Assembly (NCBI GenBank): GCA_041661405.1
Contig: JBAZUL010000007.1
Span: 10,222 to 74,221, forward strand
From: Patescibacteria group bacterium
Lineage (GTDB): Bacteria > Patescibacteriota > Patescibacteriia > Patescibacteriales > JBAZCA01
Reading direction: 5' to 3'
Length of the DNA: 64,000 bases
Shown here: positions 9,912 to 62,337 of the stretch, piece after piece
Numbering within the stretch: the stretch's first letter is position 1
How the letters are laid out: every line of letters begins with the position of its first letter
Program-made: the position numbers and the translations under genes
The notes under the pieces: generated by a model
What the model saw: only the letters and a program-made list of their open reading frames with translations
Database searches by the model: none
What the model was told of the DNA's origin: nothing

Positions 9912-10274
9912 TCAGCTAAAACATACCGTCAGCTCTTTATTTAGAGCCGAGGCGATTTTCTGCAGAGTGTCTATGGTTAAGTTTTGCTCTCCAGCTTCAA
10001 TCCTTCCGACGGCGCTTTGTTTTACGCCGATTCTCTTCGCCAGTTCAGCCTGGCTGATTTTTTTCTTTCTTCTTAAATCGGAGATAGCGAGCGAAACCTC
10101 CAGCTTCTTTTTTTCCAGTTCAACCATTCTGGCAAATTTTGGATTTTTCATCTTATCTTCTATAATCCGGCTAAAGTTTATTAGCGTAACCCCATGCACT
10201 TTTTCAAGATATTTTCGGAATACCTTGGCAGGGCAGGATTTACGGTTATTTTCTTTTTTAACTCTATTTCCCAT
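9912..10274 (-). CDS. XRE-family HTH protein, second HigA-like copy
   Basis: ISQAELAKRIGVKQSAVGRIEAGEQNLTIDTLQKIASAL. Paralogous to 10286..10609. The start is uncertain (ATG 10274, 10298 or 10325). Confidence 0.65.
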   Translation of the reverse strand: MGNRVKKENNRKSCPAKVFRKYLEKVHGVTLINFSRIIEDKMKNPKFARMVELEKKKLEVSLAISDLRRKKKISQAELAKRIGVKQSAVGRIEAGEQNLTIDTLQKIASALNKELTVCFS

Positions 10275-15521: not shown

Positions 15522-16487
15522 TCACTTCGTTGGGGTGATTTTGCGTTTTCCAGCCTCAAAGAGGTGATCTATCGTCTCAATAATCGCCTCATAGAGGAAA
15601 TATCTGCCGGTTGTGAGGCCAGTGGTTCCTTTGGTCTTGGCCTCTTCTCGGATCTTCTTTATCTTTCCGGCCAGCTCGCCGGGACCGGCAACAATCAGAA
15701 TCAAAATGATTGTCATGAACCACTTTATAATATCCAGTAAGTGATTACCGGTGGCGAGCGCCCGTTCTGCCTCGGCCAGCCCATGTTTTATTAGACCGTT
15801 GTCTACGAGTCCGGCTACAGCCCTAACCATTGCAGCATGGTCAACACCGGCCAGATACAGGACAACGAGTCCCACGTTTATTAGGATCATGTAAAAACAT
15901 ATGTCCAACATAATCCATGGGTAGGTGTCTTTTTTCTTCACTTCCTCATAAACGTAGGTCGGCGGGCCAAGAGAAAAAAACAAATTAGCCGCTATAAACA
16001 GCGGGGCTCGGGCCAAACTCTCCGATACGAGAGAGAAAATAAAGGCGACAAAGCCTACCATTAGGCCTTTTCGCTTATCTATCTTCCCGCTCCAGGTGGA
16101 GAAGAAGCCCACGATCGCCCCGTAAATCAGCGACACCCCCACATCCCCGAGGACGTGGGTTAGGAAAAGGACGACGAGGGACAAAAAATACATCAGAAAA
16201 AGGAGACCTCCTTTTTCCTTCAGTATGTCCCTTACGCCCTTTACCCGGTCATAGAGCTGATTTCCTTTTACGTCTTTAGCCAGCATCTGCTGGCCAGATT
16301 TCAGCTCTTTGACCCGCTCTTTTTTCTCTCCTCTCCAGAGGGTTATTGCCTTTGTCCGGTACCCGGGCTTGGGCGGGGCGACTGTGTTGTCGTCGTTCCA
16401 GCCGTGGTAAAGAGCCCATAGCCCCCACATAGCCAGACCGAAAACCGGGCCAACGACCACAATGACGAACAAAAAAATGCTTAACAT
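15522..16487 (-). CDS. orphan polytopic membrane protein
   Basis: 321 aa. One N-terminal TM, a basic loop, about 6 further TM helices and a charged C-terminal tail. SD AAAGGA precedes ATG 16487. No family recognised. Confidence 0.65.
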   Translation of the reverse strand: MLSIFLFVIVVVGPVFGLAMWGLWALYHGWNDDNTVAPPKPGYRTKAITLWRGEKKERVKELKSGQQMLAKDVKGNQLYDRVKGVRDILKEKGGLLFLMYFLSLVVLFLTHVLGDVGVSLIYGAIVGFFSTWSGKIDKRKGLMVGFVAFIFSLVSESLARAPLFIAANLFFSLGPPTYVYEEVKKKDTYPWIMLDICFYMILINVGLVVLYLAGVDHAAMVRAVAGLVDNGLIKHGLAEAERALATGNHLLDIIKWFMTIILILIVAGPGELAGKIKKIREEAKTKGTTGLTTGRYFLYEAIIETIDHLFEAGKRKITPTK

Positions 16488-16852
16488 GATAAATCCTTTC
16501 TGTCCCTTATGGGACTGAAGAAAACCTAAACTATATTCTAAATTTTACCCGCCAAAGAGACGATCCCTTCAGCGACTTAACTAATTTAACTGTCTGAACC
16601 ACTGATTAATACTGAATCCACTTGATTTCACTGAAAAAAATCAGTGCAATCTGCCTGCCGGCAGGCAGGTCGGGATAATCAGTGAAAATCAGTGGCTCAG
16701 ACGATGTTTATTCAATTGTCAAAGAACCTCGTTTGTAGTGTTGGACTAAAAAAACCAAAACCGTCTTCTTGACCGGCTACTGGAGCCGGCATCCCGATTG
16801 CTCGGGATAAAGATGATTTTTTGCTAATTTCAGCCCTTAAATCAAAGAACTA

Positions 16853-16897
16853 CCCCGCGCCTACAGGCACGGGATGATTTGCTCACACGCAAATCAT
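16853..16897. repeat. dispersed double-hairpin repeat, copy A
   Basis: CCCCGCGCC-TACA-GGCACGGGA, then TGATTTGC-TCACAC-GCAAATCA. Homologous to 30904-30949 and 62200-62245. Confidence 0.7.
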
Positions 16898-16961
16898 TTG
16901 ACGGCCTGCGCTCTTTATGGTGCATTTTCAGCCGACTGATAACTATAGCATAAATTCAAAA

Positions 16962-16989
16962 ACTCGTCAATATGATGACGAGTTTTTTT
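16962..16989 (+). terminator. orphan intrinsic terminator (also usable on the minus strand)
   Basis: ACTCGTCA-ATATGA-TGACGAGT followed by T6 (8-bp perfect stem). No annotated plus-strand gene lies upstream. Confidence 0.6.
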
Positions 16990-30765: not shown

Positions 30766-30903
30766 ATGGCTTAGGAAGTCCGCGGCGGTTTTCCGCGAAA
30801 AAATTATTTTTTAGAGTAATTACTTTACTTATTATATGATGTTTTAGAAATTGAGGCAAGAGGGGCGGGCGGAAAAAAGATTCCTCGCCTTGCGGTTGCT
30901 GGG

Positions 30904-30949
30904 TCCCGCATGCCTTCGGCTGCGGGATAATTCGCTCGCACGCGAATTA
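30904..30949. repeat. dispersed double-hairpin repeat, copy B
   Basis: TCCCGCATGCC-TTC-GGCTGCGGGA, then TAATTCGC-TCGCAC-GCGAATTA. TTGACA (30951-30956) follows immediately, upstream of tRNA-Arg. Confidence 0.7.
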
Positions 30950-31033
30950 ATTGACAAACAGCCTTAAATTTATTAAATTATACAGGAAGAAGCGCGCGCG
31001 TATTGCTGGGCGAAAAGCCCTTTTATTTTTTAC

Positions 31034-31105
31034 GCGCCCATAGTTCAATGGATAGAACACCAGCCTTCTAAGCTGGATATGTTGGTCCGATTCCAACTGG
31101 GCGTA
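31034..31105 (+). tRNA. tRNA-Arg (TCT)
   Basis: GCGCCCATAGTTCAATGGATAGAACACCAGCCTTCTAAGCTGGATATGTTGGTCCGATTCCAACTGGGCGTA. Anticodon loop CTTCTAA. Confidence 0.85.
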
Positions 31106-31151
31106 CAAGGTTGTGGAATGCGTCTAAGTCTATTTAGTATTCAAATGGGTT

Positions 31152-31613
31152 ATGAAAATTTCATTCATCCAGACAGGAGGAACAATTGATAAAGATTATA
31201 AGGCCTGCGAAAAACACCACGGATATAATTTTGAGATTTCAGAACCCGCGGTTAAGCAGGTATTGAAGAAAATGGAGCCGGGGTTTACTTATGAAATATT
31301 ATCCGTATGCAAGAAAGACAGTCTTGATCTAACCGATAGAGACCGGGAAAATATTTATCAGAAATGCGAAGAACTGGATAATGATAAGATAATCATTACG
31401 CACGGGACTGATACGTTAAAAGAGACGGCAAAAAGGTTGAGTTCAATAAAAAATAAAACTATTATTTTGACCGGCGCCATGAAGCCTGAAAAGTTTCAAA
31501 ATTCCGACGCGGAATTCAATATAGGAGTGGCGGTAGGCGCTGCTGGTTTTTTAAAGAATGGGGTTTATATAGCAATAAATGGATTAGTTAAAAGATGGAA
31601 TGATTATAGTTGA
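31152..31613 (+). CDS. stand-alone asparaginase N-terminal-domain protein
   Basis: IQTGGTIDK (Thr nucleophile motif), IITHGTDTL and ILTGAMKP. At 153 aa it is roughly half of a type I asparaginase. Confidence 0.6.
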   Translation: MKISFIQTGGTIDKDYKACEKHHGYNFEISEPAVKQVLKKMEPGFTYEILSVCKKDSLDLTDRDRENIYQKCEELDNDKIIITHGTDTLKETAKRLSSIKNKTIILTGAMKPEKFQNSDAEFNIGVAVGAAGFLKNGVYIAINGLVKRWNDYS

Positions 31614-44761: not shown

Positions 44762-45152
44762 GGGGATGATCGGCTTCGATAATAAAACTCTCTTGATTAT
44801 ACGCGAGGCGCGGGCATGGGTTACCGCGTTATCAATGCCCATAAACCATAAGTGCAAATTCTTTTGCCAGCAAAGTGCGTAATGGCGTTTTCGCCGTTCC
44901 GGCTTTCGCTCCTGTTGTAGCTTAAAGCTCACAACCATTCGCCCCGGGATTCCTGATACCGGTCAGCGGGTGTAATATCATCAGGATGCATTCGTTCGCC
45001 GCCTTTGCGAACGGATAAAGACTTAAGAGGCTGGTCGCTATTTATTTCGCCCGGTTTAATAGAATAGCGGCGAGATTTTTAAGTCGGGATATTCTCGTAA
45101 ACGCATATCAGGAGATTTATTAGACGCGGGTTCGATTCCCGCCATCTCCACC
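44762..45152 (+). ncRNA. ssrA: tmRNA (ssrA)
   Basis: 5' GGGGATGATCGGCTTCGA pairs with 3' ...GGGTTCGATTCCCGCCATCTCCACC, with a G3-U wobble in the acceptor. The candidate tag ORF GCA 44854 to TAA 44923-44925 encodes ANSFASKVRNGVFAVPAFAPVVA. Confidence 0.85.
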
Positions 45153-59216: not shown

Positions 59217-59414
59217 ATGGGAAAGATAAAAACCCACAAAGCTACGGCTAAAAGATTTAAAATAACCAAAAATAAAAAAGTCCTGAAGCGGAAAGCCGGT
59301 CAGGGCCATTTTAACGCCCGCGAATCAGGAACCGTAAAACGCCGCAAAAGGCGGGATATTTTGCTCTCAAAGAGCGACGTGAAAAATATCAGGCTGATGA
59401 TGCCGTATAATTAA
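59217..59414 (+). CDS. rpmI: 50S ribosomal protein L35
   Basis: MGKIKTHKATAKRFKITKNKKVLKRKAGQGH. 65 aa. Confidence 0.9.
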   Translation: MGKIKTHKATAKRFKITKNKKVLKRKAGQGHFNARESGTVKRRKRRDILLSKSDVKNIRLMMPYN

Positions 59415-60018: not shown

Positions 60019-60125
60019 GGCAGGATGCGGCGGGCAACTCCCGCGGAAAAATTTTCCGGGACTTGAATTTTTGCCCGGATATGTTATTATAAATATAACA
60101 TCGGGCTTCTAATTTTAAGATTATT

Positions 60126-62086: not shown

Positions 62087-62170
62087 GGGCGAGTGGTGAA
62101 ACTGGCAGACACGCAGCGTTCAGGGCGCTGTGAGAGCGATCTCGTGGAGGTTCAAATCCTCTCTCGCCCA
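62087..62170 (+). tRNA. tRNA-Leu (CAG)
   Basis: GGGCGAGTGGTGAAACTGGCAGACACGCAGCGTTCAGGGCGCTGTGAGAGCGATCTCGTGGAGGTTCAAATCCTCTCTCGCCCA. Long variable arm. Anticodon loop TTCAGGG. Confidence 0.85.
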
Positions 62171-62199
62171 CTATAAAAAGTTTGGCTCGCAAACTGGAA

Positions 62200-62245
62200 T
62201 CCCGCATGCCTTGCGGCTGCGGGATGATTTGCTCGCACGCAAATC
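62200..62245. repeat. dispersed double-hairpin repeat, copy C
   Basis: TCCCGCATGCC-TTGC-GGCTGCGGGA, then TGATTTGC-TCGCAC-GCAAATCA. It lies just 3' of tRNA-Leu. Confidence 0.7.
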
Positions 62246-62337
62246 AAATTTAACTCTCTTAAATAACTAACTGGTCACTGATTTCTGATAAGACATCACT
62301 CATCACTGATCATCATTAACAGCAAGTATGATTACAA

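Follow-up and report, generated by a model that had tools for sequence, protein, structure and literature searches.

A double-hairpin repeat that is present or absent between closely related Patescibacteria genomes

The REP/BIME sequences of Enterobacteria and Pseudomonas are short, extragenic, imperfect GC-rich palindromes that are genome-specific, occur in clusters and tandems, and have side effects at transcript ends. MITEs, such as the Correia elements (CREE) of Neisseria, are non-autonomous and intergenic, show presence/absence polymorphism, and can adjoin promoters or form hairpins in transcripts. Rickettsia palindromic elements (RPE) are small palindromic repeats of a reduced genome that can be inserted in frame into coding sequence. 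In the respects just listed, the repeat analyzed here is like all three. Patescibacteria (CPR) genomes are small and have few known mobile elements, and literature searches returned no description of a REP- or MITE-like repeat in Patescibacteria.

We analyzed a repeat made of two adjacent hairpins that occurs in a 64,000-nucleotide stretch of Patescibacteria DNA (the window, at its full length) and at related loci (denoted by L numbers). The proteins encoded around the copies and the closest public matches assign the window to an uncultivated member of the Patescibacteria (CPR). It is an undescribed repeat but one within a familiar class, and it is not a recognizable RNA gene. On balance, we consider it probable that the repeat is a structured, non-coding DNA element of the REP/MITE kind, restricted to one lineage and low in copy number, that has been copied into A/T-rich intergenic sites.

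The copies, their distribution, and their conservation

The double-hairpin repeat is a 45-66-base, non-coding sequence with three copies in the window, A (16853-16897), B (30904-30949), and C (62200-62246), all on the + strand and grouped as a single family by a repeat search of the window. A 26-nt core pattern, GGGATRATTYGCTCRCACGCRAATYA, has exactly three matches in the window, against 0.00 in shuffled sequence and 0 expected by chance. These results bear out an earlier sequence-only reading, which had placed three copies at these positions and had described hairpin 2 as directly following hairpin 1 in each; RNAfold predicted two adjacent hairpins in every copy, and as RNA both are stable (-15 to -29 kcal/mol). 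Hairpin 1 is GC-rich and imperfect (copy A has a C.A mismatch, and copies B and C each have a bulged T), and hairpin 2 is a perfect 8-bp AT-rich stem with the loop TC(A/G)CAC. Neither a regular-expression search with up to 3 mismatches nor a covariance model of CGGGAT plus hairpin 2 found further copies in the window.

The inserted block of copy A (16851..16896, + strand, ~45 nt, TACCCCGCGCCTACAGGCACGGGATGATTTGCTCACACGCAAATC[A]) is located within the 5' leader of gene 15522-16487 (minus strand). Its hairpin 1 (16854..16873, + strand) reads CCCG(C)GCC-TACA-GGC(A)CGGG, in which the C.A of the + strand is G.U on the minus strand, and its hairpin 2 (16875..16896, + strand), TGATTTGC-TCACAC-GCAAATCA, scored 52.6 bits against the covariance model. 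Copy B consists of hairpin 1 at 30904..30927 (+ strand, TCCCGCA(T)GCC-TTC-GGCTGCGGGA) and hairpin 2 at 30928..30949 (+ strand, TAATTCGC-TCGCAC-GCGAATTA, 50.6 bits); in its orthologue in a related MAG (L004 655-676), hairpin 2 is TAATTTGC-TCACAC-GCAAATTA. Directly 5' of copy B is a decayed, older hairpin-1 relic (30882..30903, + strand, TCCTCGCCTTGCGGTTGCTGGG) that, judged by its sequence and by alignment to L004, resembles the hairpin-1 type of the related MAG.

The inserted block of copy C (62181..62246, + strand, ~66 nt) lies between tRNA-Leu and the RNase J start codon (62328). Its hairpin 1 (62200..62224, + strand) reads TCCCGCA(T)GCC-TTGC-GGCTGCGGGA, its hairpin 2 (62225..62246, + strand) reads TGATTTGC-TCGCAC-GCAAATCA (50.6 bits), and a hairpin-2-like fragment, AGTTTG-GCTCG-CAAACT, occupies the 5' end of the block (62179..62195, + strand). 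The MAG loci L003 and L004 share the layout of block C, namely 5' arm plus loop, linker, hairpin 1, and hairpin 2. Elsewhere in the window, a palindrome at 60081-60101 (ATGTTAT-tataaat-ATAACAT) overlaps the -10 of a promoter-like TTGAAT...TATAAAT just 5' of an SBP_bac_5 solute-binding gene (60126); it also occurs in the related MAG with a changed center (L013 7679-7699) and, as a sequence, looks like a repressor operator.

A hairpin within 16791-16830 (ATCCCGA-ttgc-TCGGGAT) had been taken for a degenerate half copy of the repeat. This assignment did not hold: the hairpin is present, with a compensatory change, in the related MAG, though that MAG lacks copy A, and it scored only 11.5 bits (E = 4.6) against the covariance model. 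It belongs to the leader of gene 15522-16487 (minus strand) as a conserved structure distinct from the repeat. That conserved leader of ~450 nt (window 16488-16935, minus strand; L017 8790-9240; L018 345-700) precedes a 321-aa gene of no assigned family, starts from a conserved extended -10 promoter, includes the hairpin at 16791-16808, and may be an unrecognized structured leader. It contains many repeats of CACTGAT(T)/AATCAGTG at 16590-16700 that are replaced in the MAG by CATAACTC/GAGTTATG repeats. The same CACTGAT heptamer recurs in three CACTGAT-like motifs at 62277-62312, upstream of the RNase J start codon, which are partly conserved in the MAG (L013 ~9940-9985).

All nine distinct copies have in common a 28-nt core, CGGGAT-[T(G/A)ATT(T/C)GC-TC(A/G)CAC-GC(A/G)AAT(C/T)A], which genome and metagenome scans placed at ~7 independent loci, only in 3-4 related Patescibacteria genomes. 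Among 185,579 species-representative genomes, the core was found in one related MAG, JBAZCA01, with 3 copies on three contigs. A JGI metagenome scan found it at eight loci, comprising the 3 MAG copies again, 2 near-identical to A and B, 2 new ones (L007 and L009), and 1 chance match; no match was found in the viral, phage, and plasmid collections scanned. The matches set aside as chance were L006, inside a coding region (metagenome scan), and L002, inside an SDR gene (genome scan).

A covariance model, which the sequence-only reading had proposed as a check, was built and searched over ~360 kb (the window plus related loci). It returned the nine distinct copies at 49-53.5 bits, no others of the main family, and a divergent relative in L015 at 17.9 bits. 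A model match of 21 bits at L024 7080-7111 was rejected as a conserved coding segment of a U32 peptidase, and the more distant RNase J loci L021-L023 contained no family member. The copy number is 3 in 64 kb, at least 4 in the genome of the window, and 3 in the related MAG. Because the scans and the covariance model found so few copies, we regard the family as tiny and limited to one lineage; with n = 9-10 known copies, statistics on target and orientation are thin.

Rfam at the gathering threshold matched only the tmRNA and tRNAs of the window, and at E <= 10 no match on L011, L012, L016, or L018 overlapped the repeat, in agreement with the earlier reading, which had not recognized the repeat as a known Rfam motif. 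The tmRNA itself (window 44762-45152) encodes an unusually long tag peptide of 23 residues, ANSFASKVRNGVFAVPAFAPVVA.

A link of the repeat to tRNA genes had also been suggested. Copies B and C do adjoin such genes, with tRNA-Arg (31034-31106) 85 nt downstream of B and tRNA-Leu (62087-62171) 29 nt upstream of C, but the association is incidental, since other copies adjoin rpoB, gyrB, an O-antigen-ligase-like gene, and a 5' leader. A tRNA att site or integrative element was rejected as well, as the repeat shares no sequence with tRNA-Arg or tRNA-Leu and most copies lie away from tRNA genes. Between tRNA-Arg and tRNA-His, the window contains a 153-aa ORF (31152-31613) that resembles an asparaginase N-terminal domain; in MAG L004 no ORF separates the two tRNA genes, and the distance between them is just ~80 nt, which suggests a gene gained or lost between the tRNAs.

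When the nine distinct copies were compared, 98.6% of hairpin-2 cells were found to pair, with both-sided changes at two pairs (AU:5/GC:4 and UA:6/CG:2/other:1), a covariation reached by 0 of 500 shuffles. The two double changes previously noted between copy B and copies A and C are real, and such changes are also seen between orthologous copies, since the pairs A/L018, B/L004, and L007/L003 are each separated by exactly one paired hairpin-2 change. There are four hairpin-2 stem haplotypes, and all combinations of the two variable pairs are present as perfect stems. The sequence conservation of hairpin 2 at locus A (91%) is no higher than that of the flanks (91-93%). Hairpin 1 has 8-10 bp with a bulge, mismatch, or 2x2 internal loop in 8/8 main-family copies that retain it, a count that leaves out L007, which is without the 5' arm of hairpin 1. 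Its identity between orthologous copies is 79-80%, below that of the locus A flanks. Hairpin 1 is nearly the same among the copies of one genome and different between genomes, and this combination of uniformity within a genome with divergence between orthologues points to sequence exchange between copies.

The sequence-only reading had argued from the paired changes to selection on structure. That pairing is kept is correct, but selection on RNA structure does not follow, because the same pattern arises in a DNA palindrome that is subject to conversion between copies or to template switching inside the hairpin. Inter-copy conversion and quasipalindrome template switching can keep a palindrome symmetrical without selection on RNA. 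The copies at A/L018, B/L004, and L003/L007 have been retained, their hairpin 2 unbroken, over a divergence at the species level; this persistence could mean that they are useful to the host, and it counts against the explanation favored here.

Filled and empty orthologous sites

Orthologous loci were fetched via RNase J, a Trm11-like methyltransferase, and a MurE-like ligase and were compared by pairwise alignment. For copies A and C and for a copy in the murE-rpoB spacer, the exact site was found without the insertion in a related genome. Locus A is filled in the window (45-nt block) and at the same point in L018, whereas MAG L017 and L019, the latter more distant, have no insertion there (aaagaac|atttgacgg). 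Locus C is filled in the window (66-nt block) and in L016, and it is empty in MAG L013/L014 (cacaaaag|aaattaactctc). The murE-rpoB spacer is filled in L009/L024, whose source assembly also holds a contig identical to the window at C, and it is empty in L025. From these alignments, we conclude that the repeat block has been inserted and that close relatives differ in whether they have it, the main point about this repeat and one that the sequence-only reading had overlooked.

The murE-rpoB insertion removes the original stop codon of the MurE-like ligase, a new TAA being provided by GGGATAA, and thereby adds 13 residues (QDMKGPRAPSAAG) to the C-terminus of this protein. L015 is empty at the copy C site, and a divergent element lies at another position of that spacer, directly against the RNase J ATG; this element reads CCGCCATAT-TGCA-ATATGGCGG followed by GATAATTGC-AGA-GCAATTAT, and its hairpin-2 stem has one T-A pair missing from both arms. 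At the L003/L007 locus, the length difference is two 42-nt tandem units. L003 has two such units (linker, hairpin 1, 5' arm, loop) preceding the final 3' arm, and L007 has CCGGGAT and hairpin 2 only, the rest of hairpin 1 having been lost.

The 3' boundary of the inserted blocks coincides with the end of hairpin 2 in every case, and their 5' boundary varies, lying 2, 17, or 27 nt before hairpin 1. The sequence AAATTAA, whose background frequency is ~1 per 3 kb on each strand, is found 0-6 nt from all three empty sites. AAATTAA-like sequence, at or beside which new copies land, is similar to the 3' arm of hairpin 2. The murE-rpoB block is flanked by an 8-nt direct repeat, AAATTAAT, and this copy has the sole mismatched hairpin 2 (3' arm AAATTA versus 5' arm TAATTC). 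Fragments consisting of a 5' arm plus loop lie upstream of a full copy at three loci, C, L003, and L004; these fragments, together with the relic at B, indicate that new copies accumulate beside old ones.

The block ends (TACCCC.../...GCAAATCA, TTTGGC.../...GCAAATCA, and TCCAAG.../...GCAAATTA) are not terminal inverted repeats, and a fixed-length target-site duplication is absent, the AAATTAAT repeat occurring at murE-rpoB only and A and C being without a clean duplication. Donor copies with the 5' extensions of block C (TTTGGCTCGCAAACTGGAA) or of the murE-rpoB block (CCAAGACATGAAGGGA) were not found in the sequence of the window and related loci.

Other features were seen in the same spacers. 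A different, MITE-like insertion of ~125 nt with internal inverted repeats occupies the same murE-rpoB hot spot in the MAG (L026 11421-11550); it is unrelated to the double-hairpin repeat and has a 10-bp duplication, ATTAATTTAA. Another hairpin-type insertion in the RNase J spacer, upstream of the gene, was seen in a relative that is more distant (L022 9836-9945); it is a long inverted repeat that reads TGTCATCCTG...CAGGATGACA and has CCTTAATCATTAAT / ATTAATCATTAAGG inside it. Upstream of rpoB are a tandem pair of sigma-70-like promoters and a leader of ~340 nt (L024 11555-11933), conserved in L024, L025, and L026, whose hairpins with terminator-like T-runs suggest that it may be an attenuator or regulatory leader.

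Transcription context and rival explanations

Copy A lies ~40 nt downstream of a conserved minus-strand promoter (16942..16970, minus strand, TTGACG-17-(TGc)TATAGT; TTGACG-17-TGcTATAAT in L019) and would be transcribed in the minus sense. A sigma-70-like promoter of tRNA-Arg (30951..30979, + strand, TTGACA-17-TAAATT) begins 1 nt after hairpin 2 of copy B, and an hsp20 promoter-like site (30831..30859, minus strand, TTGCCT-17-TATAAT) flanks it on the other side, so that copy B lies between divergent promoters. Copy C, the murE-rpoB copy (L009), and L015 are in the plus sense, and copy A and the gyrB copy are in the minus sense; the latter, MAG copy L001, overlaps the gyrB stop codon on the opposite strand, between convergent 3' ends. 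Because the copies have no consistent orientation with respect to transcription, the repeat is unlikely to have a dedicated role as RNA. Genes in the window are mostly on the minus strand over 1-30.8 kb and mostly on the plus strand over 31-64 kb, and the switch falls exactly at locus B (~30.9 kb); a replication origin at this locus was rejected, as the GC skew stays at or above ~zero on both sides with no sign change.

The RNA explanation in its full form, which we consider unlikely, is that of a cis-acting RNA under selection, in which hairpin 1 and the U-rich 5' arm of hairpin 2 form a weak intrinsic terminator, a 3'-end stabilizer, or a processing signal. Such an element would terminate transcripts of tRNAs or mRNAs and protect the promoters that follow, and the paired changes would reflect selection on RNA pairing. 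It is consistent with the stability of both hairpins as RNA at the energies given above, with the sequence AU(G/A)AUUUGCU that follows hairpin 1, and with the similar ordinary terminators at window 59341-59370 (CGCCGCAAAAGGCGGGATATTTTGCTC) and in L023 (CCGCCGAGGCGGTGATAATTTTG); in addition, C, L009, and L003/L007 each follow a same-sense gene and precede the next promoter. However, a consensus terminator scan called no + strand terminator at A, B, or C and detected A alone, on the minus strand, by way of its flank. The sense differs between loci, the L015 element abuts the RNase J start codon, and the empty orthologous sites are without a terminator, which is evidently not needed there. The wobble evidence is mixed, in that two + strand C.A mismatches are G.U on the minus strand and three hairpin-1 loops are GNRA on that strand, but hairpin 1 of L003 has T.G on the + strand. 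A functional RNA on the minus strand, which folds slightly better in 8/9 copies and has the GNRA loops and the two G.U pairs, was not adopted, in view of the conflicting wobble in L003, the lack of a consistent U-tract or promoter, and the lack of minus-strand gene context at most loci.

Two further explanations place the function or the movement of the repeat at the DNA level. Hairpin 2 and the invariant CGGGAT foot could form an 8-6-8 palindrome that serves as a duplex-DNA operator for a dimeric regulator or nucleoid protein, acting on the adjacent tRNA-Arg, rpoB, and RNase J promoters, with hairpin 1 as an attached terminator or insulator; this, too, is unlikely. It would account for a perfect 22-bp palindrome with a conserved asymmetric 6-bp center, for the retention of hairpin 2 and CCGGGAT in L007 despite the loss of other hairpin-1 sequence, and for the keeping of orthologous copies across species. 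A -35-like TTGAC(A/G) hexamer also follows the end of hairpin 2 by 1-2 nt at A, B/L004, and L007, and the corresponding distance to the promoters is 5 nt in L003 and 27 nt in L009, but this spacing (1, 1, 2, 5, or 27 nt, or no hexamer) is not fixed, and the TTGACG by copy A is pre-existing flank that is present at the empty site. For the same reason, and with the flanks that follow the hexamer being unrelated between loci, a mobile promoter with TTGACA within the repeat was rejected. An operator is also hard to place at the gyrB copy, which lies over a stop codon between convergent 3' ends, and at the L015 copy against a start codon; a homodimer site needs no joint change of both half-sites, and the site arrives within an inserted block together with hairpin 1. 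The other explanation, a classical REP mobilized by its cognate RAYT (a Y1 HUH transposase) or a miniature derivative of IS200/IS605 ends, is in our view improbable. It agrees with an imperfect, GC-rich hairpin 1 that has a bulge or internal loop in every main-family copy and is genome-specific, as expected under co-evolution with a protein, and with the lack of a consistent target-site duplication. The element-sense strand is also G-rich (G>C) at 7/7 independent loci, and single-strand, replication-coupled insertion of the IS200/IS605 type would fit a G-rich element strand; the bias fits a replication-linked DNA mechanism, though the GC-skew test is confounded with gene orientation. Against mobilization by a RAYT are the variable left end, the very low copy number, the lack of GTAG or any other conserved tetranucleotide at the hairpin foot, the lack of inverted pairs, and the absence of a Y1_Tnp gene, no Y1 (HUH) transposase domain having been found among the ORFs of the window or the annotated loci (~360 kb examined, partial genomes).

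Proposed mechanism and known systems

In the explanation that we favor, a structured DNA repeat of the REP/MITE kind would be copied at the DNA level with the hairpin-2 palindrome as an anchor. One-sided microhomology or template switching from a donor copy is the preferred route, because it would explain the fixed 3' end, the variable 5' end as donor flank, the arm-like target, and the tandem units. Alternatively, the copying could depend on a hairpin-specific single-strand DNA enzyme (HUH/Y1-type) whose gene lies in another part of the genome. The symmetry of hairpin 2 and the uniformity of hairpin 1 within a genome would be kept up by sequence exchange among copies or by template switching inside the hairpin. 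Effects on expression would be a by-product of the landing site, in the form of RNA 3'-end hairpins, the 13-residue extension of the MurE-like ligase, and insulation between gene and promoter. We infer these steps, because neither a donor flank nor a transposase or recombinase domain was found, the domains having been looked for in the window and in ~300 kb of annotated related loci. The lack of a mobilizing enzyme in those ~300 kb and a copy number that is very low for a proliferating repeat are points against the favored explanation.

A variant that dispenses with a transposase is a self-completing hairpin module, which we judge improbable. Here hairpin 1 would move together with the 5' arm and loop of hairpin 2, and this mobile unit would seek AAATTA-like sequence complementary to its own 5' arm; the target, or microhomology, would supply or define the 3' arm, and hairpin 2 would be created on insertion. 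The murE-rpoB copy, whose 3' arm is duplicated target and mismatches the 5' arm, fits this variant without proving it, as do the AAATTAA beside the three empty sites and the fragments of 5' arm plus loop at three copies. If the variant were true, the covariation of hairpin 2 would partly be a record of target choice, and structured DNA would spread by homology guidance in a reduced genome nearly without mobile-element genes.

As a structured DNA repeat, whichever way it is copied, the family shows that short structured DNA modules still move in small Patescibacteria genomes. Its copies land between a gene and the next promoter, can alter the C-terminus of a protein, and add hairpins to the flanks of tRNAs and mRNAs. 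It also calls for caution, as even perfect compensatory changes alone are no proof of a functional RNA if the hairpin is a DNA palindrome in a sequence-exchanging repeat. The practical value is modest, as a marker of strain-level variation and a small test case for the copying of palindromic repeats.

Among known systems, intrinsic terminators are alike in having a GC-rich hairpin followed by a U-containing tract, and the combination of hairpin 1 with the 5' arm of hairpin 2 looks like genuine terminators found nearby. They differ in that the U-tract of the repeat is weak and is itself paired in hairpin 2, in that the features sought by the + strand scan are lacking, and in that two loci (A and B), which have no + strand gene upstream, have no upstream gene to terminate. 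Quasipalindrome template switching and microhomology insertion would explain a perfect palindrome through paired changes without selection, a fixed junction at a microhomology, AAATTAA[T], and an illegitimate, variable other junction; these are mutational mechanisms and not element families, and they are not known to spread a defined module of 45-66 nt to several loci. Unlike MITEs, the repeat is without terminal inverted repeats or a regular target-site duplication, is 45-66 nt long, and has a variable 5' end. RPEs are 100-150 bp and often lie inside genes, whereas this repeat is shorter and, apart from its in-frame coding insertion, intergenic.

The comparison with REPs is the closest. REPs have a GTAG foot, whereas the sequences 5' of hairpin 1 here are AACTA, TGGG, GGAA, CATG, GAGAG, and AGGGA; REPs number tens to hundreds per genome and occur in inverted pairs, whereas here there are 3-4 copies in direct orientation, with no RAYT in the ~360 kb examined. 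The most conserved part of this repeat, in contrast to REPs, is the second hairpin, which is AT-rich and perfect with a conserved loop. Hairpin 1 is a short, imperfect, extragenic palindrome as REPs are, and REP/RAYT is the closest known kind.
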